A DNA stretch of 64,000 nt, taken from positions 5,027 to 69,026 of the forward strand of contig CAIZMI010000044.1 in NCBI GenBank assembly GCA_903934015.1, in the 5' to 3' direction. The position numbers and the translations under genes are program-made. Below, piece after piece: positions 1,886-54,417 of the stretch. The notes under the pieces are model-generated. The model had not been told where the DNA came from. It was given only the letters and a program-made list of their open reading frames with translations, and made no database searches. Source of the DNA: an uncultured bacterium. GTDB lineage: Bacteria; Patescibacteriota; Andersenbacteria; UBA10190; CAIZMI01. How positions within the stretch are numbered: the stretch's first letter is position 1; each line of letters opens with the position of its first letter.

Positions 1886-3162
1886 ATCATTCATTATTTG
1901 AAATCCACCGCGCCACTGCGCCATCTGGCTTGCGGCTTTTAGCGTTGCCGATGGGTGGCACCGGCACTGTTACCGTTATGGCTTTTGTGGCCACCGGTTC
2001 CCGGTACGAAGATGCTGAAGAAGCGGGAGTTTCGCATTTTTTAGAGCACTTATTTTTTAAGGGTTCGAAAAAACGACCAACAACATTACAAATCTCAGAA
2101 GCCCTAGATGAAGTGGGTGGAGAGTTTAATGCGTTTACGTCGAAAGAAATGACCGCATTTTATGCCAAGGCATCTGCAAAACATACAAAGTTGTTGTTGG
2201 ATGTTTTGGGTGATATGTTGATCAACCCACTTTTCCAGCAAAAAGAAATCGATCGGGAACGTGGCGTAGTAATAGAAGAAATGAATATGTATGAAGATTC
2301 GCCACAGGATTCTATTGGGGAGCAATTTGAGCTTCAACTGTTTGGTGAACATGATTTGGCGCGAAAAATTATCGGTACGAAAGAAATTATTAGCACAATT
2401 ACCAAGAAACGCATTGTGAAATATCGTAATCAGCAGTACGGCGCGCCAAATATGGTTGTTTGTATTGCGGGAAATATTGAACCAGGGAAAGCTTTGGCAA
2501 TGCTTAAGCGACAATTTAGTGGTTTGCCAAAGCAAGCACCGGTAAAAATCAGAGGATTTGGTGGCGTTTGGGGAACAGATTTGGTTTCACTTAAAGTGAA
2601 AAAGACAGATCAAGCACATGTGATTATTGGTGGACGAGGAACTTCCTTGGTGGATGATGATCGTTGCGCCGTTGATTTGCTAAGTACAATTCTTGGTGGC
2701 AGTATGTCGAGCCGTTTGTTTATTGAGGTGCGCGAGAGACGTGGGTTAGCGTATTCTGTTCACACGTCGGCTGAACATTTTGTTGATACCGGTTATATTG
2801 CGACGCAAATCGGTGTTGATCCGGGTAATGTTGAAAAGGCTTTGTTGGTAATATTGAAAGAATATAAAAAAATTCGTGAAATTCCTATTGTTGCCGGAGA
2901 GCTTAAAAAAGCCAAGGAAAATATTAAGGGGCACCTCTTGATTCGTTTGGAATCAACAAACGCGGTAGCTCAGTTTGTTGGCGGTCAAGAGACACTGACA
3001 GGACGTATTTTGTCTCTGGAGGATGTGTTTAAAAGTTTTGACGCGGTAACACCAGCTGATATTCAACGCGTCGCAAAAAAATATCTCGCGCCGGAATTTT
3101 TGAGAATTGCGGCCATTATGCCGAATGATGTTAAAAATGAATTAACTAAATTACTTATATAA
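1882..3162 (+). CDS. M16 (pitrilysin/insulinase) family zinc peptidase
   Basis: HFLEHLFFKGS inverted zinc motif HxxEH, 426 aa. Overlaps the glyQS stop by 4 nt. Confidence 0.8.
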   Translation: MNHSLFEIHRATAPSGLRLLALPMGGTGTVTVMAFVATGSRYEDAEEAGVSHFLEHLFFKGSKKRPTTLQISEALDEVGGEFNAFTSKEMTAFYAKASAKHTKLLLDVLGDMLINPLFQQKEIDRERGVVIEEMNMYEDSPQDSIGEQFELQLFGEHDLARKIIGTKEIISTITKKRIVKYRNQQYGAPNMVVCIAGNIEPGKALAMLKRQFSGLPKQAPVKIRGFGGVWGTDLVSLKVKKTDQAHVIIGGRGTSLVDDDRCAVDLLSTILGGSMSSRLFIEVRERRGLAYSVHTSAEHFVDTGYIATQIGVDPGNVEKALLVILKEYKKIREIPIVAGELKKAKENIKGHLLIRLESTNAVAQFVGGQETLTGRILSLEDVFKSFDAVTPADIQRVAKKYLAPEFLRIAAIMPNDVKNELTKLLI

Positions 3163-3167
3163 AAAGT

Positions 3168-4214
3168 ATGAGAACGCAGAATTTTATGACGATTGATATT
3201 TCAGCGAAAACGCTTTTTCGTCTGTTATTTTTTATTCTTGCTGTATGGTTTCTTTGGTTTATTCGTGACCTTTTGTTGATTTTATTGGTGGCTGTTTTGA
3301 TTGCTTCGGCATTAGAGCCTCTTGCGATACGTCTTCAGCGTTTTCGAATACCGCGTGCAATTTCCGTTTTGACGGCCTATGCTTTTTTTGTCGGTTTGTT
3401 GATTGTTGCAGTAACAATTCTTGTCCCGCCTTTAATTGCTGAAATTCAGTCGTTAACGGTAAATTTGCCCGTGATATACACGCAATTGGTGTCTATGTTG
3501 GGAAGAGCCGGAGTGGCCTTTGGTGCTTCGGATTTAGTTCCATCGCTCCAAAAAGGGTTATTGGATGTCGGTCAATTTTTAGCGCAAACCTCTAATGGTA
3601 TTTTTGCCACGACAAAAACCGTTTTTGGTAGTCTCTTCTCAATATTGCTTACTTTTGTAATTTCTTTTTACCTAGTTATTTCCAGGGACAGTCTTTATGC
3701 GTTCGTTTGTTCGGTTGTTCCGTTGGAGCATCGTCCCTACACGATAAAAATTATAAAAAAAGCACAGCAGAAAATTGGTCATTGGCTTCTGGCTCAAATT
3801 GTGCTGGGATTGATTATGGGCACGCTTGTCTTTGTGTGTTTGTGGGCATTAGGTGTTCCATATGCTTTGGCGATTGCGTTGCTAGCCTTTTTTGCCGAAT
3901 TTGTTCCAGTCATTGGCCCAACACTCTCTGCTATTCCGGCTGTTCTTCTTGGTTTTACTAACTCTTGGATTGTTGGATTAATCGTCCTAGTTATGTATTT
4001 GATTATTCATCAAATTGAATCAAATTTGCTGGTGCCAAACATTATGCGTCGCGCGGTTGGACTGAACCCTCTTACAACAATTTTGGCGGTAATAATTGGA
4101 GCAAAGCTGGCAGGCGTTATTGGTGTCGTGTTGGCTGTACCGATTGCGACAATTATTTCATTGTTTATTACCGATTTGTTGCCGAACGAGAAGGAAGAAG
4201 AACTACCGGCGTAG
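3168..4214 (+). CDS. AI-2E/PerM (UPF0118) family transporter-like membrane protein
   Basis: About 8 predicted TM helices, 348 aa, typical PerM topology. Confidence 0.6.
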   Translation: MRTQNFMTIDISAKTLFRLLFFILAVWFLWFIRDLLLILLVAVLIASALEPLAIRLQRFRIPRAISVLTAYAFFVGLLIVAVTILVPPLIAEIQSLTVNLPVIYTQLVSMLGRAGVAFGASDLVPSLQKGLLDVGQFLAQTSNGIFATTKTVFGSLFSILLTFVISFYLVISRDSLYAFVCSVVPLEHRPYTIKIIKKAQQKIGHWLLAQIVLGLIMGTLVFVCLWALGVPYALAIALLAFFAEFVPVIGPTLSAIPAVLLGFTNSWIVGLIVLVMYLIIHQIESNLLVPNIMRRAVGLNPLTTILAVIIGAKLAGVIGVVLAVPIATIISLFITDLLPNEKEEELPA

Positions 4215-8278: not shown

Positions 8279-10027
8279 CTAGATTTTTGTGTACATTTCG
8301 TGACCCGGCAGTTTGTCATGGCGGATTTTGTCGATAGGACTGTTCCAGTGGTGGTCCTCTATGTAGGAGATAAGAAGTTCCTGATTTGGTTCGATTTTTT
8401 CCTCCTCGCATCGACGCTGGAAAAATATCCCGATTCTTTCTCTTGCCTCATTAATTGATAGTGTTTTTGCTTTTATACTGGCGATTAGTATTCCTTCATA
8501 TTCTTCCATTTCCTCCCAAATTTTCAACAAAGCCTCGTCAGGTCGTTTTCGTTCAAGTTCGGCTTCTTCCGCGATAATTGCTTTTTGTTCTTTATCTATT
8601 TCTCGTAAGCCAGGCACAAGAAGTCCGGTTTCGTTTTCTTTCAAAAATTTATAATAACGATCAAGCAAAATTTTACGTTTTTCGCTCGGCTCTTCGCCAT
8701 CATTCGGAAATTCAATGCCATCCAGGTCTGTTAGCAAATCCGCTTCCTCTTCAAACGGCATTCGTGTAAGTTGGTCGGACCAGTCTTCAAGAGGAATCTG
8801 GGCGAGCACCCATCGAAACGTTTCATACCTTTTTTTTAAATTCCGTCTTGCGTAAAGCGCTGCCGGATAGTTCGCTTCTCGACAAGCCTCATATAAGTTC
8901 TCTTTGTAACGCGAATGTAATCTTTCATATGCCGAAGAAGTTACGGATAATCCGGCGATTTTAAAGTAGTCGTACACATCCATTCTTTCGAGAAGTTCGT
9001 TTTTGTAAGAGAAGGGGTCATATGATGTTGTCTTGTAATTGGCCAAAAGTTCGTCTTTTGCACGTCCAAGAGCATAGCTTAATAGGCGATCTTCTAATCG
9101 TGCTCGCTCCGCTTTTTGTTTTTTCTGGTCTTCTGTTGGTTGATCAAGCACTACATCGTCTGAATTAAGAAGTTCTATCTCGGTTATCTTTAGTGCGGGG
9201 GAGTGACTCCAAACCAGACGACGGTGTTCTGCTTCAGGTTTCTTTATTACGGAATTTTTTAAAATTGAGTTTTCAGCGTGGCCTACTTCATGCTTTTTGA
9301 CACTTGAATCTTGATTGGCATTAACGGCGATAAGGGGAAACGCGAGTTTGTCAATTGTTTGATTTGCCTGATGGAACCCTCCAACATTGTCTTTTGGATC
9401 AACGCGTTTATAATCTTCCGCATCGGAAAAATTCATTATCAAGGCCAGGGGGTTGGTTGTATCTAGTGCAATTTTGCCTTTTGGTTTTTCGGGTGTCTTT
9501 GCTAAATATGTAGTAAACAATCTTTGGCCAAGCCAGTGGCTTACATCGATATTTTGTTTTTTCAAGTGTTTGGAGTGAGCGATAAGGAGCTTTACTTGTT
9601 CACTCATTCTTTGATCAATATAATCTTGTGAATGTCCTTTTTCTTTTAACGCTTTTTCGTAGGCGTCTAGACCATCTGCTTGTATAATCCAATCTTCTCG
9701 AATAATTGAATCGCGTGCCCATGTGTTTACCGCTAAAATTTTTTCGCGTGTTTCCAGTAATTTGTCGATAAAAGCATCTACCGCATCGGGATGAACAATC
9801 CTGTCTGATTGTTTTGCGACTTCTAAAAATTCCTCACGCGTAATAGCGGGGTTTTTCATAATTGTATCGACAAAAAGTTGCGCGCACTGGGCGTTGTCAA
9901 ATAAAGCCTCCATACGAAGAAGAGCGGAAGCATCTCTCTTTTCTGCTTTTTCTTCAGCAGTTTCATGTGGCATTTTTCTAACACCTTCGATTTTGTCGTC
10001 GTATTTTGGCGTTCGCTCCATGGACAT
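8279..10027 (-). CDS. large hypothetical protein with HEVGH (HExxH) motif
   Basis: About 580 aa, alpha-rich and charged. Single HExxH. Track start is TTG 10063; internal ATG used. Confidence 0.45.
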   Translation of the reverse strand: MSMERTPKYDDKIEGVRKMPHETAEEKAEKRDASALLRMEALFDNAQCAQLFVDTIMKNPAITREEFLEVAKQSDRIVHPDAVDAFIDKLLETREKILAVNTWARDSIIREDWIIQADGLDAYEKALKEKGHSQDYIDQRMSEQVKLLIAHSKHLKKQNIDVSHWLGQRLFTTYLAKTPEKPKGKIALDTTNPLALIMNFSDAEDYKRVDPKDNVGGFHQANQTIDKLAFPLIAVNANQDSSVKKHEVGHAENSILKNSVIKKPEAEHRRLVWSHSPALKITEIELLNSDDVVLDQPTEDQKKQKAERARLEDRLLSYALGRAKDELLANYKTTSYDPFSYKNELLERMDVYDYFKIAGLSVTSSAYERLHSRYKENLYEACREANYPAALYARRNLKKRYETFRWVLAQIPLEDWSDQLTRMPFEEEADLLTDLDGIEFPNDGEEPSEKRKILLDRYYKFLKENETGLLVPGLREIDKEQKAIIAEEAELERKRPDEALLKIWEEMEEYEGILIASIKAKTLSINEARERIGIFFQRRCEEEKIEPNQELLISYIEDHHWNSPIDKIRHDKLPGHEMYTKI

Positions 10028-21645: not shown

Positions 21646-21668
21646 TGCTCCACCTACGAGGTGGAGCA
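21646..21668. repeat. REP hairpin TGCTCCACCTACGAGGTGGAGCA
   Basis: 6-bp stem CCACCT/AGGTGG with ACG loop. Additional small hairpins lie 20-60 nt upstream. Confidence 0.75.
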
Positions 21669-21696
21669 AAGGTACTCCCTGGTATATGATAATAAT

Positions 21697-22365
21697 ATGC
21701 GGAAAGATATTCTAACTAATAGTGAAGTTTACCATGTGATGAATAAAAGTATCGCTGGATTTAAAATATTTCAGTCAGAGAAGGACTTTTTGCATATGAG
21801 AAACTTGATTAGGTATTACACATCTGCGGGTGTCCGACAAAAGTATTCACAATTTGTACGTGATGTAAATATTCACAAAGATGATATTGAAGAAGAAATC
21901 AATAAACATTTATTGCAGAAAGAAAAAACAGTGCAAATAATTTGTTATTGTTTAATGCCTACGCATTTTCATGTGGTAATAAAACAATTACAGGATCATG
22001 GTATCGAAAAATTCATGTCGGATGTTTCCAATGCATATACACGTCATGTGAATATAAAAATTGAACGAAATGGGCCATTGTGGGTAGGGCGTTTTCAGAG
22101 TGTACTTGTTGATAATGACGATTATCTTACCCATTTAACGCGGTATATCCATCTAAATCCTGTTTCTGCTGGATTAGTTAAAAAAGCCTCTGGTTGGCCC
22201 AATTCTTCTTTTTTGGAGTATGTAAATCGTGATAAGGTGAGGTTTCCGGTGTGCGATTATTCAGGCTTTATTTCTTTTTCGGAAAAACAATACGAAAAAT
22301 TTACAAACGATCACGCGGATTATCAAAAGGAGCTTACACGAATAAAAGCTCTTTGTTTAGAATAA
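21697..22365 (+). CDS. REP-associated tyrosine transposase (RAYT; IS200-like HuH-Y1 family)
   Basis: HuH motif CYCLMPTHFHVVI and Tyr motif RYIHLNPVSAGLVKKASGWPNSSF, which align with E. coli YafM VVLPEHMHCIW / YIYINPVKHGWV..WPFSTF. Start at ATG 21697; track start GTG 21661 lies inside the REP. Confidence 0.8.
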   Translation: MRKDILTNSEVYHVMNKSIAGFKIFQSEKDFLHMRNLIRYYTSAGVRQKYSQFVRDVNIHKDDIEEEINKHLLQKEKTVQIICYCLMPTHFHVVIKQLQDHGIEKFMSDVSNAYTRHVNIKIERNGPLWVGRFQSVLVDNDDYLTHLTRYIHLNPVSAGLVKKASGWPNSSFLEYVNRDKVRFPVCDYSGFISFSEKQYEKFTNDHADYQKELTRIKALCLE

Positions 22366-22382
22366 GGTTTATTACCTTGCAC

Positions 22383-22423
22383 CACCTACGAGGTGGAGCA
22401 AGGTTGCTCCACCTCGTAGGTGG
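22383..22423. repeat. inverted REP doublet CCACCTACGAGGTGG-AGCAAGGTTGCT-CCACCTCGTAGGTGG (BIME-like)
   Basis: 20-2-20 near-perfect palindrome 18 nt after the RAYT stop. Confidence 0.8.
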
Positions 22424-22439
22424 TAAGCAGGTCGTAGAA

Positions 22440-23851: not shown

Positions 23852-23893
23852 CCGCTCACGGAGCGGAGCAACCTTGCTCCGCTCCGTGAGCGG
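23852..23893. repeat. REP-variant doublet CCGCTCACGGAGCGG-AGCAACCTTGCT-CCGCTCCGTGAGCGG
   Basis: Same architecture as the 22383 doublet (ACG loop, AGCAA-SS-TTGCT spacer) but a different stem. Confidence 0.75.
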
Positions 23894-23924
23894 ACAAAGG
23901 TTCATCGTTCTCAATTTCAGAACT

Positions 23925-24900: not shown

Positions 24901-24983
24901 GCCGGAGTGGCGGAATGGTTTACGCGCACGACTCAAAATCGTGTGACCTTACGGTCATGTGGGTTCGACTCCCTCCTCCGGTA
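24901..24983 (+). tRNA. tRNA-Leu (anticodon CAA), type II with long variable arm
   Basis: 7-bp acceptor stem GCCGGAG/CTCCGGT(GU), anticodon stem CACGA/TCGTG with loop CTCAAAA, variable arm GACC-TTAC-GGTC, T-loop TTCGACT. Overall layout parallels E. coli tRNA-Leu. CCA is not encoded. One U-U mismatch in the T-stem. Confidence 0.8.
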
Positions 24984-24994
24984 CAATAAATATA

Positions 24995-25582
24995 ATGGAT
25001 ACAAGTACTAAACCCAATTTACGAACGCTTGCGTACGTGATTGGTGTTGGTATTGGCGACGGCAACTTATCAAATCCCAACAAAAGAGCGACGCGATTAA
25101 GGATTAGTTGTGATACAAAATATCAGGAACTGATTAGAAAAATTCAAGGGTCTATTAGGGAAATTCTACCGAATAACAAAGTTTCCATTGTAAATAGAAA
25201 CAAGAACTGTATAGATATTAGTTGTTATTCAAATATGTGGGAGGGGTGGCTTGGATGGTCCGCAGGTGGTGGCCCAAAACTTGATCAGAAGGTGAGGGTT
25301 CCTTCGTGGATTATGAAAAAAGAGGAGTTTATTATTCCTTGTTTACGTGGATTATTTGAAACGGATGGATCTGTCTATTTTGATCGTGGATATTTAATGG
25401 CAATGTTTGTGACGACGATTCCGGAATTAGCAGAGGATGTTTTGAACATGACTGCTAAAATCATGATTTCGGCCAAGATGTATGAAATTGAAAAAAAGCC
25501 ACCAAGTCACACAAGATACAATATCCGTGTTTCGAAGAATGTTTCAGATTTCGTTAATTTGATTGGAATACAAAAGAGGTAA
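24995..25582 (+). CDS. LAGLIDADG homing endonuclease (two-motif, single-chain)
   Basis: LAYVIGVGIGDGNL and LRGLFETDGSVYF motifs. Starts 12 nt after the tRNA-Leu 3' end. Track start 24959 overlaps the tRNA. Confidence 0.8.
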   Translation: MDTSTKPNLRTLAYVIGVGIGDGNLSNPNKRATRLRISCDTKYQELIRKIQGSIREILPNNKVSIVNRNKNCIDISCYSNMWEGWLGWSAGGGPKLDQKVRVPSWIMKKEEFIIPCLRGLFETDGSVYFDRGYLMAMFVTTIPELAEDVLNMTAKIMISAKMYEIEKKPPSHTRYNIRVSKNVSDFVNLIGIQKR

Positions 25583-25628: not shown

Positions 25629-26417
25629 ATGATAATATCCATCGTTAATCAAAAAGGTGGAGTGGGGAAAACTACCACGGCTGTTAATTTGGGAGCGGCC
25701 TTGGCCAGGGCTGGGCATCCTACATTGCTAGTTGATCTTGATCCGCAGGGAAACGCTTCCTCGGGGGTTGGAATTGGTGACGAACAGCGGTTACCGGGTA
25801 TTTATGAGCTTTTACGCGGAGAGGTAGCGGCGGATGCCGCTATGCGCCCGACGGCACAGGAAAATTATCACGTGATGCCGGCAACAGCGGATTTGGCCGG
25901 TGCTTCGGTGGAATTAATGAATGTCGATAATCGTGAATTTCGTTTAAGGGAAGTGCTTGCTCCGCTCAAAGAGCAGTATTCATATATTATTATTGACGCC
26001 CCTCCTTCATTGGGAGTTTTGACAATGAACGCCTTGGTTGCCGCTGAACGAGTCTTAATCCCCGTGCAGTGCGAATATTATGCGCTTGAGGGGCTTGGTC
26101 AGCTTCTCCAGACAATTGGTTTGGTTAAAGAGCATTTGCATCCTGAACTGGAAGTATTAGGTGCCGTATTGACGCTTTTTGATCGACGCGTAAAAGTGGC
26201 GCATGACGTGATCAAAGAAGTACGTGAACATTTTCCGGGAAAAGTATTTGAAACCGTTATTCCAAGAAATATTCGCTTAGCAGAAGCGCCATCTTATGGT
26301 AAAAATATCTTTGAGTATGACGATGCATCTCAGGGCGCGCAAACTTATCAATCGTTTGCGCAAGAAGTTCATGACACAGTAAAAAATTTAATTAATCAAC
26401 AAACACCACAAACATGA
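25629..26417 (+). CDS. parA: chromosome partitioning ATPase ParA/Soj
   Basis: Deviant Walker A KGGVGKTT, 262 aa. Confidence 0.9.
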   Translation: MIISIVNQKGGVGKTTTAVNLGAALARAGHPTLLVDLDPQGNASSGVGIGDEQRLPGIYELLRGEVAADAAMRPTAQENYHVMPATADLAGASVELMNVDNREFRLREVLAPLKEQYSYIIIDAPPSLGVLTMNALVAAERVLIPVQCEYYALEGLGQLLQTIGLVKEHLHPELEVLGAVLTLFDRRVKVAHDVIKEVREHFPGKVFETVIPRNIRLAEAPSYGKNIFEYDDASQGAQTYQSFAQEVHDTVKNLINQQTPQT

Positions 26418-27319
26418 AACCAGGAGGATTGGGAAGAGGTTTATCCGCATTAATTCCACAAAGGCGCGACGAAGGTTCTACTTTTGTTGCGACGCAACCG
26501 AGTTATTCGAGTGTTGTTAGAGCTGAAGAATCGACAGGTAATCGCGTGATGATGGTGGCGGTTGAAAAGATTGATCGTAATCCGGAACAGCCACGTCAAG
26601 ATTTTTCAGAAGCTGATTTGCAGGATTTGGCGCAATCCATTCGTGAGCATGGAATTTTACAGCCGTTATTGGTTACTAAGGATATGGATCGCTATACGCT
26701 TATTGCCGGTGAACGTCGTTTGCGAGCGTCAAAACGGGCAGGATTAAAAGAGGTACCTTGTTTGGTGCACGTTCCCGTGACTGATAAAGAACAATTAGAG
26801 TTGGCGATTATTGAAAATGTTCAGCGTGAAGATCTGAGTGTTTTGGAGCAAGCAATCGCTTATAAAAAATTGCACGACGAATTTAATATGACCCACGAAG
26901 AAATTGCGAAAGCAGTGGGTAAAGAGCGCCCTTCAATTACGAATATTATTCGTATTTTGGATTTGCCCGATGAAATGCAGAAAGCGCTGAAAGAAGGCAA
27001 AATGAACTTTGGTCAAGCCCGTAGTCTGCTTGCTGTTACCGAACCGGAAAGACAAAAAGAAGCGTTTCAAAAAATGCTAGAGGGAAAGATGAGTTCGAAG
27101 GCTCTTGAACGCGTTCAGCAAAAAACCAACGTTCAGGCGCATCAAAGGGTAATTCAAAAAGATCCGCAACTTGCCAGTTATGAAGAAGAAATGGGACGGA
27201 CTTTGGGAACACGGGTCAGGATTAAAAAAATTGGTGATTCAGGTGGAAACATTATTGTGGATTTTTACAGCGACGAAGAATTATCGGGAATTATAGAAAA
27301 AATTAATATTGGCCGATAA
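26414..27319 (+). CDS. parB: chromosome partitioning protein ParB/Spo0J
   Basis: GLGRGLSALIP N-terminal box, ParB/Sulfiredoxin and HTH regions. 4-nt overlap with parA. Confidence 0.9.
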   Translation: MKPGGLGRGLSALIPQRRDEGSTFVATQPSYSSVVRAEESTGNRVMMVAVEKIDRNPEQPRQDFSEADLQDLAQSIREHGILQPLLVTKDMDRYTLIAGERRLRASKRAGLKEVPCLVHVPVTDKEQLELAIIENVQREDLSVLEQAIAYKKLHDEFNMTHEEIAKAVGKERPSITNIIRILDLPDEMQKALKEGKMNFGQARSLLAVTEPERQKEAFQKMLEGKMSSKALERVQQKTNVQAHQRVIQKDPQLASYEEEMGRTLGTRVRIKKIGDSGGNIIVDFYSDEELSGIIEKINIGR

Positions 27320-44981: not shown

Positions 44982-45361
44982 TGCGCCGAATAAAATACGC
45001 GATACAGGGGCTTGTATTGGGAATCAAAACAGATCGTTCGATTCGTTTGCACTTCATTGTGGCATTAATTGTGTTTATTGGTGCGTTGTTGTTGCAAATA
45101 CCGTCTCTTCAGTGGGCGATATTGATATTGACAATATTTTTCGTGATCGTTATGGAGTATGTTAACTCTGCGATTGAGTCTTTTGCTGATCGTGTTCATC
45201 CGGAACAACATTTTGCGATTAAAAAAACTAAGGATCTTGCGGCGGCCGGTGTATTTTTGTCCGCTATTTGCGCACTTTTGGTGGGATTATTGATTTTTCT
45301 TCCACCATTAATAAAGATGACCGCGGAATGTTGTTTATCGACAGTCACTGATGAACAATAA
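44978..45361 (+). CDS. dgkA: diacylglycerol kinase (prokaryotic DgkA family)
   Basis: 3-TM, EYVNSAIE motif. 4-nt overlap with ybeY. Confidence 0.75.
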   Translation: MMRRIKYAIQGLVLGIKTDRSIRLHFIVALIVFIGALLLQIPSLQWAILILTIFFVIVMEYVNSAIESFADRVHPEQHFAIKKTKDLAAAGVFLSAICALLVGLLIFLPPLIKMTAECCLSTVTDEQ

Positions 45362-45439: not shown

Positions 45440-46684
45440 ATGTCAAAAGATGAAATATTGGTAGGTTTGGATGTCGGAACAACAACAACAAGGGTTGTTG
45501 TTGCGGTTCGATCTCCTGAAAATGAAAAACCGTCTGTTCTTGGAATTGGTGTTGTTGCCTCGTCTGGAATTCAGAAAGGTGTTGTGACTGACGTTGAAGA
45601 AACAATCCAATCTGTAAGCAAGGCATTGGATCAAGCAGAACAGATGGCCGGAATTCCGATTGAGCGTGCCACTGTCAGTATTGGTGGGGCGCATATTTCC
45701 TCGCAAAACAGTCGTGGTGTAATTGCTGTTTCAAGAGCGGATGGTGAAATAAGCGAAGATGATATCACGCGGGTAGTAAACGCTGCGCAAGCTATTTCAA
45801 TACCATCCAATCGTGAAATACTTCATGTCGTACCGCAACAGTTTGTTGTTGATAGTCAGGATGGAATAACCGATCCGTTGGGGATGACCGGTGTTAGATT
45901 GGAAGTGGACGCTCATATTATTGAAGGTTCCGCGCCGTTTATTAAAAATTTGACGAAGTGTGTTTATCAAGCGGGTGTTACGGTGGGGGATTTGGTGTAC
46001 GCTCCGTTATCTGCCGCCAAGGCGGTTCTTTCCAAGAGACAGCGCGAATTGGGTGTAATTCTAATCGACTTAGGCGGTGGTACAACCAATATCGCTGTTT
46101 TTGAAGAAAATCGTTTGCTTCAGACGGCAACTTTACCGATTGGTTCAATGCACATTACAAATGATATCGCAATTGGTCTTCGTTCATCTATTGATGTGGC
46201 GGAAAAAATTAAAGTAGAACTTGGTACGGCACTGCCGGATGAAGTAAAGAAAACACAGGTAATAAACTTAAAGCATATGGATGAACAAGAAGAAGAAACG
46301 GAAATACCACGACGTCACGTTGCGGAAATTATTGAGGCGCGGTTGTCTGAAATATTTGCAATGGTAAATAAAGAATTAAAATCAGTTCAGCGGTCCGGGC
46401 TTTTGCCGGCCGGAGTTGTGCTTACCGGTGGTGGGTCAAAAATGCACGGTGTTGTTGAATTGGCAAAAAAAGAATTGCGATTACCTGCGCAGTTGGGTTA
46501 CCCGCAACCATTGCCTGGAATTGTTGATGAAATTAATGATCCGGCATGGGCAACAGCGATGGGATTAATCTTTCATACTATGGATAATCAACAAGCAAAG
46601 CCCCGTTCATCAATGCCAAATCTTTCTTCGGTTGGTCCAACGGTAACAAAAATTCGGGGCTGGTTTCGGTCGTTAATGCCTTGA
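45440..46684 (+). CDS. ftsA: cell division protein FtsA
   Basis: Actin-fold. N-terminus ILVGLDVGTTTTRVVVA; DLGGGTTNIAVF. Confidence 0.9.
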   Translation: MSKDEILVGLDVGTTTTRVVVAVRSPENEKPSVLGIGVVASSGIQKGVVTDVEETIQSVSKALDQAEQMAGIPIERATVSIGGAHISSQNSRGVIAVSRADGEISEDDITRVVNAAQAISIPSNREILHVVPQQFVVDSQDGITDPLGMTGVRLEVDAHIIEGSAPFIKNLTKCVYQAGVTVGDLVYAPLSAAKAVLSKRQRELGVILIDLGGGTTNIAVFEENRLLQTATLPIGSMHITNDIAIGLRSSIDVAEKIKVELGTALPDEVKKTQVINLKHMDEQEEETEIPRRHVAEIIEARLSEIFAMVNKELKSVQRSGLLPAGVVLTGGGSKMHGVVELAKKELRLPAQLGYPQPLPGIVDEINDPAWATAMGLIFHTMDNQQAKPRSSMPNLSSVGPTVTKIRGWFRSLMP

Positions 46685-46858: not shown

Positions 46859-46897
46859 TTGTTCACATTGAACAACAATAGTGTTCACACTGAACAA
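46859..46897. promoter_or_regulatory. two tandem 7-3-7 palindromes TTGTTCA-CAT-TGAACAA and GTGTTCA-CAC-TGAACAA (centres 22 bp apart) upstream of ftsZ; candidate operator
   Basis: Perfect inverted repeats. The same motif occurs at 48287-48303 and 49826-49842. Confidence 0.55.
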
Positions 46898-46970
46898 TGG
46901 TAAGTTTGACAAGCTTTTTCAGAATGGTATTCTGGCCGTGTTACCCATTAATGAATCGAAACAAAGATTT

Positions 46971-48143
46971 ATGGCAGAAGTTAAACCCAAAATAGAAACA
47001 CTTCCAAAAATAAAAGTCGTTGGTGTCGGAGGTTCCGGTAACGCCGCATTGAATAGGATGGTTGAAGCAAAAATTAAAGGAGTGGAGTTTATTGCGGTCA
47101 ATACTGATGCGCAGGCTTTGCATCATTCGGGCGCTGATCAGAAAATTCACATTGGCCAAACTTTAACAAGGGGTTTGGGCGCAGGGATGGATCCATCCGT
47201 CGGTCAACAGGCCGCGGAAGAAAGTCGTGAAGAAATTCATGAAGCGTTAAAAGGTAGCGACATGGTGTTCGTTGCTTGTGGTGAAGGCGGTGGAACGGGA
47301 ACCGGTGCTTCTCCTGTTGTGGCAGAAATTGCCAAAGAAAGTGGTGCGTTAACAATTGCGATTGTAACAAAACCTTTTTCTTTTGAAGGACAGGCACGCA
47401 GGATTATTGCTGATGAAGGTTTGGCAGAATTATGCGAACGGGTCGACGCGGCTGTTGTCATTCCAAATGATCGTCTGTTGCAGGTTATTGATAAAAAAAC
47501 ATCTTTGTTAGATGCGTTCCGAATTGTGGACGATGTGTTGCGCCAAGGTGTTCAAGGTATTACTGATTTGATTACCGAGCACGGTATGGTAAATGTTGAT
47601 TTTGCTGACGTTAGAGCAATTATGTCTGACGCCGGATCGGCTTTAATGGGCATTGGTAGAGCGACGGGTGAAAATCGCGCAGTTGAAGCCGCGCGTGCCG
47701 CAATTGATAGCCCATTGTTGGAAGTTTCTATTGATGGCGCGAAAGGGATTTTGTTTAATATCAGTGGTGGTTCGGATCTTGGTATGTATGAAGTGGAGGA
47801 AGCCGCTCGAATTATTACCGAGAACGCTGATCCTAATGCGCGTGTCATTTTTGGAGCAGTTATTGATGAAACACAAGTTAATGATGAGGTTCGTATTACG
47901 GTAGTTGCTACCGGTTTTGATTCAGCAAAGAAAGAACCATTGCAACATCGTGATCAGCCGAGAACAATGGTGGCAAAGCGACCGGTCAGTTCTGTGCCGT
48001 CATTTTCTAGGCCAATGGAACATCCGATGCCTTCACCGCAACCACATCCAGTAGTACCGCCACAACAAAAGACGATACAGCCACCAAGTACGCAAGAAGA
48101 TTTGGATATTCCAACGTTTATACGTCGTAAAATGAAAAATTAG
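46971..48143 (+). CDS. ftsZ: cell division GTPase FtsZ with P/Q-rich C-terminal linker
   Basis: [13 protein letters not shown], tubulin signature GGGTGTG, T7 loop. Start at ATG 46971; track GTG 46881 lies inside the palindrome. Confidence 0.9.
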
Positions 48144-48277
48144 AGTAAAAAAATTTGAGACAGATAATTTTTCAAAGGTTCCGCCGAAAGAGGCGGAACC
48201 TTTTTGAAAATTTCTAAATATTTAAGAAAATAATCAATGGTTCAATGTTTAAATTGTTTTGGTAATTGAAAACAATT

Positions 48278-48312
48278 AACACCCCATTGTTCAAGGTGAA
48301 CAATGGGGTGTT
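48278..48312. promoter_or_regulatory. extended palindrome AACACCCCATTGTTCA-AGG-TGAACAATGGGGTGTT, 35 nt upstream of comEC
   Basis: Core TTGTTCA-N3-TGAACAA plus flanking CCATT/AATGG arms. Confidence 0.55.
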
Positions 48313-48346
48313 AATTGTGTCATAAGAATTGTACGATTATTAAACT

Positions 48347-49882
48347 ATGTATCCTCAAATTGTCCCGTATTTGTGTGTGGGTTATATCGCGGGCGTAATG
48401 ATTGGAAGCGCATTTTCCCCCATAGTGGCGAATGTTTTTTATCTTACTTTTATTCTATACGGTCTCTTGATATTGTTTGGGCGTTATCAGGCGGTGAGAT
48501 ATGGATTAATTTTTGTCGGTTCTTTGTTGGCGGGATTGGTGTTGAGTGATTTGGCGGTTAGAAGCGATGTGCAAAGCATGGCGAGCTGGAAAAATGTTGC
48601 CGGAATTATCTCAAAATATGAAGGTCGTGTTCAAAGTGTGGAAGAAGATGGACTGTCATTAAAATTTCAAGTTGAAAACGTAAAGAAACAAGACACTAAT
48701 AATGTGTTGCCCGGAGTGCTTGAAATTAAGACAGCGGTTTCGGAGAGTATTCAGGTGGGAGACAATATTCAGTTTATTGGAAAAATTGCCATTCCGGATA
48801 ATTTTTCCTTAAGTGCTGGCCACTTTGATCCGCGTCGGTATTATGCCCGTTATGGAATTTTTGCCACAATGCTTAATCCGCGAATACAAATATTGCAGGG
48901 GGGCGCGGAAAATAAATTAACAATGTTTCGAAGTTATTTGCGGGAGAGGTTTTTTGTTTTGTTGCCCGAACCGGACGCGGGGCTTTTTTCGGCGACACTG
49001 TTGGGATACATGCGGGACGTTCCAAAAAGCTTGCGTACAGATTTTTCCAATTCCGGCTTAGCGCATTTGGTGGCAATTTCCGGGCAACACGTGAGCATGT
49101 TGGCCATCGCGATATTTTTTATTACAACAATGATCGGCGTACCGCGAATTTACGCGATGATTATTACCGCGATTTTAGCTACGGTATTTATTGCGTTAGT
49201 TGATTTTCCGCCAAGTGGTATTCGGTCGGTGATTATGGTGGCGGGGGTTTATTGGGCGATGGCGTCAGAAAGAAAATCCCACGGCGTTCGGATCCTTTTA
49301 GTAACCGTGGTGTTGATGCTTATGGCAAACCCGCGAATCCTATTGGCCGATTTGGGTTTTCAATTATCCGCACTGGCAATGTGGGGATTAATTGTATTTT
49401 ATCCTCTTTGTCAACGTTTTACTTTTCGCACGAATTCTTTTGGGTTGCAAAATATATTTTTAATGACCGCGTGCGCGATGTTTGCAACGACTCCGATTAT
49501 TGCCTATTCGTTTGGTAGGGTTTCGTTGATTGGCGTGGTTGCTAATGTTTTTGCGGCACCACTTTATCCGCCGTTAATGCTTTTGGGGGTATTAGTTTTA
49601 ATTTTTGGATGGATACCGATTTTCCAAAGTTTTTTGTTTTTTGCCACTCACACGCTTACAAAAATATTTTTAGAGTTGGTGGAGTTTTCGGCAAAACTTC
49701 CCGGCGCCAATATCCAATTGGTAGAATTTAAGGCAGAATATCTTGTGTCATTTTACATAATTTTATTTGTCTTATCAATTTTATTATCACGTTCGACACG
49801 AAGACAATTTTGGCCGATAAACGAATTGTTCAAAGTGAACAAAAATGGTGTCCACCCTGAACAACGAGGTGAAAATAAATAA
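48347..49882 (+). CDS. comEC: ComEC/Rec2 competence channel protein (DUF4131 + competence domain), lacking the C-terminal MBL domain
   Basis: Multi-TM protein. Competence-domain region (..SGLAHLVAISGQHVSMLA..). Confidence 0.75.
   Translation: MYPQIVPYLCVGYIAGVMIGSAFSPIVANVFYLTFILYGLLILFGRYQAVRYGLIFVGSLLAGLVLSDLAVRSDVQSMASWKNVAGIISKYEGRVQSVEEDGLSLKFQVENVKKQDTNNVLPGVLEIKTAVSESIQVGDNIQFIGKIAIPDNFSLSAGHFDPRRYYARYGIFATMLNPRIQILQGGAENKLTMFRSYLRERFFVLLPEPDAGLFSATLLGYMRDVPKSLRTDFSNSGLAHLVAISGQHVSMLAIAIFFITTMIGVPRIYAMIITAILATVFIALVDFPPSGIRSVIMVAGVYWAMASERKSHGVRILLVTVVLMLMANPRILLADLGFQLSALAMWGLIVFYPLCQRFTFRTNSFGLQNIFLMTACAMFATTPIIAYSFGRVSLIGVVANVFAAPLYPPLMLLGVLVLIFGWIPIFQSFLFFATHTLTKIFLELVEFSAKLPGANIQLVEFKAEYLVSFYIILFVLSILLSRSTRRQFWPINELFKVNKNGVHPEQRGENK
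49826..49842. promoter_or_regulatory. TTGTTCA-AAG-TGAACAA palindrome within the last codons of comEC, 42 nt upstream of the MBL gene start
   Basis: Fourth copy of the 7-3-7 motif. Confidence 0.5.
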
Positions 49883-49883
49883 A

Positions 49884-50747
49884 ATGAAGCGCAGGATAAT
49901 ATTTTTGATACTGGTGGGGACGTTGGTGTTTGGTATGGCCTTGTTTCTGCAAAAATCAAGCGACGGCAAAGTTTTTGTTAGCTTTATGAATGTAGGGCAA
50001 GGCGATACGATTTTCTTGCGTCAGGGAAATTTTGATCTTCTGGTGGACGGTGGACCGGATTTATCGGTTTTACAACGTCTTGGAGAAACGCGTCCTGCAT
50101 GGGATCGGAAAATTGACGTAATTGTATTGACACATCCGGATCAAGATCATCTTGGTGGATTATTATATGTTGTAAATAAATATAAGGTTGGGGCGGTTGT
50201 ATTGCCAAAAATTATCGAGAAGACAAAAAATTATCGAATATTCCTCCAAAGTATAATGGATAAACAAATTCCATTAGTTTTTGCCGAGGCGGGGCAAACA
50301 ATCATTTATAATGACATTAAATTAGAAATTTTTTCGCCTGATGAAAAACTGCTTTCTTGGGGAAAAACAAACATTAACAACGCTTCGGTGGTTTCGAGAT
50401 TAACTATTCCGGGGGTTTCGGCGTTGCTCACCGGAGACGTGGAGGCGCCGGCAGAAAATTATTTGGCAAAAAAATATAATACGATCCTCAAGTCGGATAT
50501 TTTGAAAGTCGGTCATCATGGCAGTAAGACATCGACAACTGCCGGTTTCTTGGGTGTTGTTAAGCCGAAAATGGCAATTATTTCGGTAGCGGCAAAAAAT
50601 ATGTTTGGACACCCAAATCCCTTAACACTAAAAAGACTTGGCGGAGTAAAAGTTGAAAGGACGGATAGGATGGGAACGATCACTTTGGAAAGTGACACGA
50701 AAACCAGAGAAGTTAAGTTGAGGTGCGAGAAGGAATGCGCACTTTAA
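49884..50747 (+). CDS. secreted/membrane-anchored metallo-beta-lactamase fold protein (ComEC C-terminal-domain-like, free-standing)
   Basis: N-terminal signal anchor. HPDQDH motif (HxHxDH). GHHGS. Confidence 0.75.
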   Translation: MKRRIIFLILVGTLVFGMALFLQKSSDGKVFVSFMNVGQGDTIFLRQGNFDLLVDGGPDLSVLQRLGETRPAWDRKIDVIVLTHPDQDHLGGLLYVVNKYKVGAVVLPKIIEKTKNYRIFLQSIMDKQIPLVFAEAGQTIIYNDIKLEIFSPDEKLLSWGKTNINNASVVSRLTIPGVSALLTGDVEAPAENYLAKKYNTILKSDILKVGHHGSKTSTTAGFLGVVKPKMAIISVAAKNMFGHPNPLTLKRLGGVKVERTDRMGTITLESDTKTREVKLRCEKECAL

Positions 50748-50950: not shown

Positions 50951-51595
50951 ATGTCTAAATCTCAAAAAAAGTCGGAAGTGGATTCAAAAATAATGGAAAT
51001 AAAGCGTCAGCAGACGTTGGTTTTAATTAAGCCGGATGGAGTACAACGCGGATTGATTGGTGATGTTATCGGTCGCTTTGAAAAAGCCGGCCTTAAGCTG
51101 GTAGGAATGAAGATGATTTCCCCAAGTAAGGAAATTTTGGAAAAGCACTATACAAACGACGTTGCGTACCTAACCGCATTGGGTGAAAAAGCCAAGGCGG
51201 GAATGGAGAAAAGCGGATTATCAGATAGCCGTACGCCAATTCAGATTGGACAATGGATTCGTAATCAGTTGGGTCGCTATTTGGCAATCAGTCCTGTTGT
51301 GGCGATGGTTTGGCAGGGAACACACGCCATTGGCAATGTTCGCCAATTAGTTGGTAGTACTAATCCCATTTCTGCCGATGTTGGTAGTATTCGCGGTGAT
51401 TTAACAATCGACACTATCGAAATGGCCAACTTGGAAGGACGCTCTGTTAGAAACTTAATTCATGCCTCATCCGAACCGGAGGAAGCAAAACGCGAAATCG
51501 CGCTTTGGTTCACGAAATCCGAAATCTATGATTATGAAAACGTCATGGACAAAGTTTTGCATGATGCGGAATGGGACAGTCCAAAGAAGAAATAG
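50951..51595 (+). CDS. ndk: nucleoside diphosphate kinase with ~40-aa insertion
   Basis: TLVLIKPDGVQRGLIGDVIGRFE..VVAMVWQG..NPISADVGSIRGD. Active-site His is in NLIHASS. Confidence 0.8.
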   Translation: MSKSQKKSEVDSKIMEIKRQQTLVLIKPDGVQRGLIGDVIGRFEKAGLKLVGMKMISPSKEILEKHYTNDVAYLTALGEKAKAGMEKSGLSDSRTPIQIGQWIRNQLGRYLAISPVVAMVWQGTHAIGNVRQLVGSTNPISADVGSIRGDLTIDTIEMANLEGRSVRNLIHASSEPEEAKREIALWFTKSEIYDYENVMDKVLHDAEWDSPKKK

Positions 51596-53773: not shown

Positions 53774-53800
53774 CCGCATGTGAAAGTGCGGTTTTTTTTT
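53774..53800 (+). terminator. rho-independent terminator CCGCA-TGTGAAAG-TGCGG + T9
   Basis: Follows the 53743 stop. Confidence 0.6.
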
Positions 53801-53807
53801 GTTTTTC

Positions 53808-54031
53808 GTCGGGACGCCGGGAATCCCGTTTTCCCCGTCGCGTGGCCTCGCCGTTTATTAAGCCGGGAATCGGCCTCGCCTCTCGGAGTACTGATGTCCT
53901 CCTCGGGCTGGCCACCGCCTCCTGTCCGTTTGCGGACAGTCCGGCGTCCGATTCCCGGGTATTCCGAGTCACAAAAAATAGGCCACAGGCCTATTTTTCA
54001 TGACAGTCGGGACGCCGGGAATCGGACCCGG
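53808..54031. repeat. GC-rich structured noncoding block with direct repeats TCGGGACGCCGGGAATC (x2), CCGGGAATCGG (x3 direct, x1 inverted) and hairpins (CTGTCCG-TTTG-CGGACAG; AATAGGCC-ACA-GGCCTATT)
   Basis: Seen directly; no convincing ORF. GC looks far above the genome background. Confidence 0.5.
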
Positions 54032-54417
54032 TCTACATGCACCCCATGCATGCGTACTACCGGTATACTACGTCCCGGTTGTTTCAATTATGCGCAAAAA
54101 AACGCGAGCCGTATATACAGCATACCGCATACTGAATACATCATTCTATATACTACTTCGTCATTTCTTTTGTCGCGATCTTGATACAAGAGGCGCACAA
54201 AAGCATCCGGATACCGGCGATTTTGCATTTCTGCAAGTTTGGGTATTGACGGCGTTTGGAAGCGATATTTGAGTGGCTTCTGCTAAAAGAAGACTGTGTT
54301 TTCTTTTCGCAACGCTGGCAAACTTTCATCATAGGGGTGGGGGATGAGGATTAAATACTGAAGGAATTTAACATATCATTTACATTCGAGCAAGAGTGAG
54401 CTGTGTTGTGGGAATGT

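Follow-up and report, generated by a model that had tools for sequence, protein, structure and literature searches.

In the phage Cro/CI systems two repressor dimers bind cooperatively about two helical turns apart, with a weak site beside a strong one, and such pairing of strong and weak sites is the classic pattern of a cooperative operator. The individual sites, such as those of λ OR1-OR2 or the TP901-1 CI sites with their GTTCA half-sites, are dyads of 15–17 bp with a free centre that are recognized by repressors of the XRE family, and λ cI bound at OR2, immediately 5′ of a −35 box, is an activator as well. WalR binds TGTWAH-N5-TGTWAH sites at P1 of Bacillus subtilis ftsAZ, and the LytTR regulators ComE and AgrA recognize 9-bp repeats with a period of 21 bp. 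In Verrucomicrobia the LexA box is TGTTC-N4-GAACA, and tandem copies of it are bound cooperatively by LexA (Erill et al. 2016, PMC4951493). Here we describe a tandem array of hexamers that bears comparison with each of these. It lies upstream of the cell division gene ftsZ in 64,000 nucleotides of DNA from an uncultured bacterium (contig CAIZMI010000044.1 of assembly GCA_903934015.1, positions 5,027–69,026, forward strand), a stretch that we call the window, and further copies of its motif stand before comEC and before a free-standing metallo-β-lactamase (MBL) gene. We consider that it is probably a cooperative operator array for a dimeric DNA-binding regulator with ftsZ as its ancestral target, and put the probability of this at roughly 0.7. 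The host belongs to a lineage of the candidate phyla radiation (CPR, or Patescibacteria) allied to Andersenbacteria. Bacteria of the CPR are not growable alone and encode very few regulators; their transcriptional control is, to our knowledge, almost unexplored, and searches of the literature for the motif or for CPR regulons gave nothing relevant.

The sequence TTGTTCANNNTGAACAA is present in three exact copies in the window, starting at 46859, 48287 and 49826, where dinucleotide-preserving shuffles give an expectation of 0.00. A preliminary description of the locus had counted four perfect copies of this 7-3-7 palindrome in 3 kb. Four is the correct number for the 6-3-6 core TGTTCA-N3-TGAACA, of which the copy at 46881 is a perfect example; it starts GTGTTCA, and so has one mismatch to the longer form. 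That account missed a fifth, degenerate copy at 49848 (GTGTCCACCCTGAACAA, two mismatches), 22 bp after the copy at 49826. The motif is therefore laid out as two tandem pairs, before ftsZ and the MBL gene, and a single site before comEC, and the 22-bp spacing already reported for the ftsZ pair is identical in the second pair. The two pairs can be regarded as 40-nt units that are 85% identical.

The distal ftsZ site is an exact match at 46859–46875 on the plus strand, TTGTTCA-CAT-TGAACAA, and provides the half-sites a and b. The proximal site, GTGTTCA-CAC-TGAACAA at 46881–46897 on the same strand, provides c and d. They end 96 and 74 bp, respectively, before the ATG at 46971. The comEC site, TTGTTCA-AGG-TGAACAA at 48287–48303, ends 44 bp 5′ of the ATG at 48347. 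It is embedded in a perfect 22+3+22 palindrome at 48272–48318, which is 47 nt in length and 100% complementary, in place of the 35 nt first described; its outer arms hold two near half-sites, TTAACA at 48276 and TGTTAA at 48309. The distal site of the MBL pair, TTGTTCA-AAG-TGAACAA (49826–49842, plus strand, exact match), ends 42 bp 5′ of the ATG at 49884, and is followed by GTGTCCA-CCC-TGAACAA (49848–49864, plus strand), which retains the 22-bp TGAACA spacing and scores 23.7 bits with a position weight matrix (PWM) despite its two mismatches. All the distances to start codons agree with those given earlier. The PWM was built from 24 sites. The five sites of the window score 22–27 bits and are all confined to one 3-kb stretch of the 64 kb, while the next best match reaches 17 bits and lies within the coding sequence of dagK. 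This near-match, GTGTTCATCCGGAACAA at 45192–45208, is found at the same place within dagK in several genomes (8408 in L153 and 7853 in L159), where the protein sequence, and not an operator function, is the probable cause of its conservation. Among the 24 sites the right half is TGAACA in every one, the G and the C of the left half are present in 23 and 24, respectively, and the central 3 bp carry less than 0.45 bits. The sites thus combine the symmetry of a dyad or repeat with conserved contact positions and a free centre, as is to be expected of an operator.

How general is the array? We compared the window with 13 related loci, in all of which the gene order ybeY-dagK-ftsA-ftsZ-comEC-MBL-ndk is kept, with unrelated insertions in a few (L155, L161 and L163). 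The closest FtsZ homologues come from sources with names such as ‘Parcubacteria group bacterium Gr01-1014_38’ and ‘Candidatus Andersenbacteria’, and one related metagenome-assembled genome (MAG) is labelled Ca. Saccharibacteria. The tandem array is found at the same place between ftsA and ftsZ in nine genomes (the window, L156, L153, L159, L160, L024, L154, L155 and L161), whose FtsZ proteins are 74–87% identical and whose GC content runs from 40 to 64%. The only invariant columns of the alignment are those of the half-sites and of a TTGACA box downstream, while the surrounding DNA cannot be aligned. In general form the array comprises four hexamers, a-N3-b-N7-c-N3-d; conservation is seen in b, c and d, and a is the weak member. 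The right half of the distal site is invariantly TGAACA among the orthologues, and none of the four half-sites is more degenerate than its left half; the proximal site is the best conserved, and this extends across 11 related loci. Pairs of TGAACA on the gene strand separated by 16 nucleotides, and hence 22 bp apart, number 12 in the nine clade loci against an expectation of 0.01.

Two more distant relatives keep the layout with variant half-sites: L162 (FtsZ 71% identical) has cGAACA-N7-TGTACA-agg-TGTACA-N10-TTGACA, and L163 (69%) has TGAACA-N7-TGTCCA-aag-TGAACA-N10-TTGACA. For this reason the half-site is best written TGWWCA. Counting these, the array is kept 9–10 bp from the TTGACA in 11 of the 13 related ftsZ upstream regions, so that its position at orthologous promoters has been kept even as the flanks diverged. 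Some copies are direct rather than inverted repeats, for example TGAACA-cgt-TGAACA in L153 and the TGTACA-agg-TGTACA of L162. L157 and L158 (FtsZ 70 and 67%) have no 6-3-6 site, only a TGTACA-N7-TGT(G/A)C(A/G) pair. In full this reads TGTACAC-N5-GTGT(G/A)C(A/G), with hexamers 13 bp apart, at 9816–9834 in L157 and 9980–9998 in L158; the former adjoins the −35 box, and the latter lies 2–3 bp before the ftsZ start codon. These pairs may serve the same regulator in a different arrangement.

The conserved TTGACA belongs to a predicted promoter. In the window a −35 box TTGACA (46906–46911, plus strand) is separated by a 16-bp spacer from an extended −10 element TGgTATTCT, with the −10 box at 46928–46933. 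By comparison with the consensus this is the best promoter-like match of the region, at 10 of 12 positions with the TG in addition, and the form TTGACA-N16-(TGn)TAnnCT is conserved in the orthologues. On this consensus-based prediction the ftsZ sites of the window leave a gap of 9 bp to the −35 box downstream and stay clear of the core promoter, and in eight genomes the proximal hexamer ends 9–10 bp before that box. If the start of transcription is placed some 7 bp beyond the −10 box, the sites would be centred at about −51 and −73. Such a placement would be typical of activators that touch the α subunit of RNA polymerase, and would be compatible with repression too; it appears atypical of repressors of the LexA type. 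The sign of the regulation may differ between the targets.

The genes downstream carry the remaining sites. ftsZ itself (46971–48143, plus strand, Pfam Tubulin and FtsZ_C) follows ftsA (45440–46684, Pfam FtsA) and has its own GC-rich terminator at 48162–48215. comEC (48347–49882, plus strand) encodes a protein with DUF4131 and Competence domains but no MBL domain, the latter being provided by the free-standing gene at 49884–50747 (plus strand, Pfam Lactamase_B), whose product is the equivalent of the C-terminal domain of a full-length ComEC. Its start codon at 49884 is preceded by GAGG at 49867–49870, and is aligned with the start codons of the MBL genes in L153, L156 and L159. ComEC is split in this way throughout the lineage (in the window, L153, L154 and L156–L163), with a DUF4131 plus Competence gene and a separate MBL gene downstream; the two often overlap by ATGA (L153, L154 and L159), and unrelated genes sit between them in L155, L161 and L163.

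Within the nine clade loci, sites at comEC and at the comEC/MBL junction are found in the low-GC subclade only. The window has them at both places, as does L159 in the form of single perfect sites; in L156 there is a site at MBL alone, and in L153 both are reduced to TGAACAA-N15-TGAACAA pairs of half-sites. There is neither a comEC nor an MBL site in L154, L155, L160, L161 or L024. To judge from this distribution ftsZ is the ancestral target, and the comEC and MBL sites appear to be later additions. In the window the comEC open reading frame (ORF) contains the pair next to the MBL gene at its 3′ end, within the last 19 codons as checked on the sequence. The frame in which the 3′ end of comEC reads through the motif differs among the relatives. 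The right half-site is translated as (P/S/T)-E-Q in the window, L153 and L159, and in L156 the comEC stop codon lies inside it; it is therefore the DNA that is conserved here and not a ComEC peptide. In L153 and L159 the junction site runs right up to the MBL start codon (TGAACAATGA). A promoter would not fit between the two, and a protein bound there could act only as a roadblock or by occlusion of a promoter upstream.

Several other explanations of the motif have to be weighed, one of which places its function in RNA. Hairpins might serve termination, attenuation, processing or occlusion of the ribosome binding site, in read-through from ftsA into ftsZ and at the comEC–MBL junction. The comEC palindrome and the ftsZ pair are indeed predicted to fold well beyond shuffles, at −35.2 and −18.4 kcal/mol, respectively, and the abutment on the MBL start in two relatives would suit occlusion. 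Yet in the nine orthologous ftsZ regions the 126 pair cells include just 2 in which both sides have changed, a number not above that of shuffles, and pairing in the distal helix (helix 1) reaches only 71%. The variant copies break the pairing: in the direct repeat of L153 and in GGTCCA-gtc-TGAACA of L155 the letters of one half are kept and its pairing is lost. With sequence conserved, not merely pairing, and no covariation, the constraint lies on the DNA sequence, and a DNA-binding protein is indicated. There is in addition no U-tract 3′ of the palindromes on the gene strand, terminator-like calls being made on the minus strand only, and no Rfam family matches at the palindromes. ftsZ has a terminator already, and a conserved promoter downstream of the sites would exclude them from the main ftsZ mRNA. 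We therefore think a role in RNA quite unlikely. If a protein is bound, the motif might be the SOS box of the lineage, with LexA repressing ftsZ, comEC and the MBL nuclease until its damage-triggered self-cleavage. The half-sites contain GTTC and GAAC, like many LexA boxes, the tandem Verrucomicrobia boxes are bound cooperatively, and LexA motifs are known to drift between phyla. The resemblance had been remarked upon in the preliminary description, but GTTC and GAAC are separated by N5 here and by N4 in the Verrucomicrobia and Gram-positive boxes compared, which may not represent the motif of the host lineage; the Verrucomicrobia tandems are 1–2 bp apart against 7 bp here, and at ftsZ the sites precede the predicted −35 box and do not cover the core promoter. 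Neither lexA nor recA is encoded in the window or in the related loci compared, and ftsZ is not known as a usual direct target of LexA. The repair-related genes mfd and rarA/mgsA, together with dprA and topA, are present in the window without a site. This tells also against the SOS-like or competence regulon proposed before; the conserved target is ftsZ, and the comEC and MBL copies are a feature of the low-GC subclade only. We regard a LexA box as an unlikely explanation.

The sites could also be small palindromic repeats of the mobile or repetitive extragenic palindrome (REP) kind, passively spread, perhaps by an IS200-like Y1 transposase, and without regulatory role. The tandem pairs behave as repeated 40-nt units, the comEC copy is a perfect palindrome and must for that reason be young, and there is a Y1_Tnp gene in the window at 21661–22365 (Pfam E = 3.8e-7). 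That gene is, however, flanked by a different family of hairpins, with the motif studied here absent; unlike REPs, the ftsZ copy is fixed relative to the −35 box across 40–64% GC and 69–87% FtsZ identity; and there are only five copies in 64 kb, all within the one 3-kb stretch. Passive spread is thus very improbable. Scarcely any weight can be given to the suggestion that the ParB encoded 20 kb upstream binds the sites as a parS centromere peculiar to the lineage. The parA and parB genes (25629–27319) are in the window, neither the window nor any related locus has a canonical parS (TGTTTCACGTGAAACA, allowing up to three mismatches), and the motif loosely resembles parS when the latter is written TGTTTCA-CG-TGAAACA. 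But parS is a 16-bp TGTTNCACGTGAAACA with a generally conserved centre, whereas the sites here have a 15-bp core in which the central 3 bp are free, and their position is fixed relative to a promoter. The recognition helix of the window ParB is near-canonical, keeping the residues that correspond to R173, N178, R181 and G201 in Caulobacter ParB. Finally, the GC skew gives no sign of an origin within the window, and it is around the origin that parS sites are usually dispersed.

Some further motifs were compared and set aside. TTGTTCACA resembles the DnaA box TTGTCCACA, but its CACA is not conserved in the orthologues. The b–c junction reads ACAC-N5-GTGT, the wrong spacing for an NrdR box (ACAC-N8-GTGT), and the Deinococcus RDRM/DdrO consensus TATGYYHTTARCRKA is unrelated to the motif. 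The consensus sequences of Fur/Zur (7-1-7), TnrA, CRP/FNR, PurBox and ArgR do not fit, either in spacing or in their invariant bases.

Our preferred reading, that of a cooperative operator array, can be set out as follows. One sequence-specific DNA-binding protein would recognize all five sites, its recognition unit being a pair of TGWWCA hexamers 9 bp apart; most simply this would be a dimer of the helix-turn-helix or a similar class. Binding would probably be cooperative between neighbouring sites, which at 22 bp, or two helical turns, would present the same face of the DNA. The conserved, ancestral target would be the ftsZ promoter, where the b-N7-c-N3-d array, with its weaker a, ends 9–10 bp before a near-consensus −35 box, a geometry suited to activation or to interference with the α subunit of RNA polymerase. 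The low-GC subclade to which this organism belongs would then have gained extra sites, before comEC and at the comEC/MBL junction, those at the junction acting only as a roadblock or by promoter occlusion, so that cell division and both halves of the DNA-uptake channel and nuclease would answer to the same protein.

A number of observations weigh against this reading. In L154, L155 and L161 the best promoter supported by a −10 element is 11–14 bp further from the sites, and although a TTGACA is still kept there at the usual distance, the longer distance weakens a strict face-of-helix model of activation, which cannot be taken as secure. Every site known from the 64 kb and the 13 loci falls in the single 3-kb cluster of ftsZ, comEC and MBL. 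Among 185,579 species genomes, a scan for the perfect tandem gave 28 matches, of which a single one (L024) was a relative and the others were unrelated arrays such as the Firmicutes iterons described below, and a metagenome scan with ATTGTTCANNNTGAACAAT gave at least 120 loci, nearly all lone chance sites, none of those listed being related to the window by tblastn. And in a Pfam search of about 60 ORFs of the window, with relaxed thresholds for the unknown ones, no recognizable transcription-factor gene was found except that of ParB; nor was there a regulator candidate among the unknown ORFs tested from the related loci of about 20 kb, and no two-component genes were seen nearby. The proposal in the preliminary description of a protein operator with dyad symmetry and two-turn phasing is supported by the conservation before orthologous ftsZ promoters with diverged flanks and no RNA covariation. 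The word repressor goes too far, since sites centred at about −51 and −73 would be as typical of an activator, and ‘CPR-specific’ is too broad, for the array occurs only in a single lineage with affinity to Ca. Andersenbacteria.

The element is in kind an ordinary operator array; its significance is as a rare lead on the control of division in the CPR. It is a sharply defined 40-bp element, conserved before a central division gene across very different base compositions, and it could be used directly as bait for the regulator by DNA-affinity methods or DNA affinity purification sequencing (DAP-seq). Its secondary extension to comEC and to the gene for the ComEC nuclease suggests, without proving, a link between division and DNA uptake. 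More speculatively, a dedicated and undescribed regulator might gate ftsZ throughout the Andersenbacteria-related CPR lineage and have been rewired in one subclade to the ComEC channel and its separately encoded nuclease. It would thereby tie the decision to divide to the scavenging of DNA, the presumed nucleotide source of these nucleotide-auxotrophic bacteria, perhaps with opposite sign at the ftsZ sites upstream of the −35 box and at the comEC and MBL sites inside the transcribed region. We offer this wider scheme tentatively, and think it rather doubtful as a whole.

The window has other features of interest. The hairpin GCTCCACCT-ACG-AGGTGGAGC occurs at 21650, at the start of the Y1 gene, and at 22382 and 22409 after its end, the last two as an inverted pair that makes a perfect 21+2+21 palindrome (the whole region being 21650–22424); a related hairpin pair, CCGCTC-ACG-GAGCGG, lies at 23852 and 23879 (23852–23900). 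The gene and its hairpins look like a REP-associated tyrosine transposase (RAYT) gene with repeats of the REP/REPIN type in a CPR genome. The window ParB has I and D at the positions of T179 and A184 of Caulobacter ParB; the roles of the recognition residues of the Caulobacter protein were reportedly worked out by Jalal and colleagues in 2020. A tRNA-Leu(CAA) at 24901–24984 is directly followed by a free-standing LAGLIDADG ORF of about 195–207 amino acids (region 24901–25582), which at its listed start overlaps the tRNA; it matches Pfam LAGLIDADG_3 and, weakly, the LAGLIDADG domain of WhiA, and has no WhiA helix-turn-helix domain. ARAGORN calls a tRNA-Pro(GGG) at 54006–54077 on the minus strand, which Rfam does not report at its gathering score, and the ORFs listed across 53780–54272 are probably spurious. 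Lastly, the nucleoside diphosphate kinase gene ndk at 50951–51595 (Pfam NDK) encodes 214 amino acids, and the proteins of the relatives have 194–258, where typical NDKs have about 140–150. The Pfam match of the window protein is split into two stretches, which suggests an insertion.

Comparison with known systems places the array among several that it resembles in part. Bacillus, Streptococcus and Granulicatella genomes contain three to five copies of TGTTCA-N3-TGAACA with a period of 22–23 bp inside ORFs (L005 1371–1429, L016 2334–2438, L018 3553–3612, L021 7734–7815, L025 203–285 and L030 3206–3265; the ORFs of L005 and L030, for example, are 1033–1935 and 2797–3588). These resemble the origin iterons found in phage and plasmid replication-protein genes. 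They share the 15-bp core and the repeat length with the sites here, but they lie inside coding sequence in unrelated taxa and not at a promoter, and the likeness is probably convergent. A Bacteroidales MAG (L007 1600–1740) has seven perfect copies with an exact 21-bp period. The WalR, ComE and AgrA sites share with the array a period of about two turns, a place immediately upstream of the −35 box and targets in ftsZ or competence, and the direct-repeat copies of L153 and L162 add to the likeness; however, the hexamers here are 9 and 13 bp apart and mostly inverted, against 11 or 21 bp for the WalR and LytTR sites. The tandem operators of the phage Cro/CI (XRE) type match the array in the size of the dyad, the free centre, the two-turn spacing and the pairing of a weak with a strong site, but the window has neither a divergent repressor gene nor a prophage setting. 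The Verrucomicrobia LexA box has the same half-site letters in the same orientation, and its tandem copies often pair a strong with a degenerate box as the array does; it differs in its spacer and in the distance between tandem copies, and while its targets are lexA, recA and imuA (Erill et al. 2016, PMC4951493), those of the array would be ftsZ, comEC and the MBL gene.

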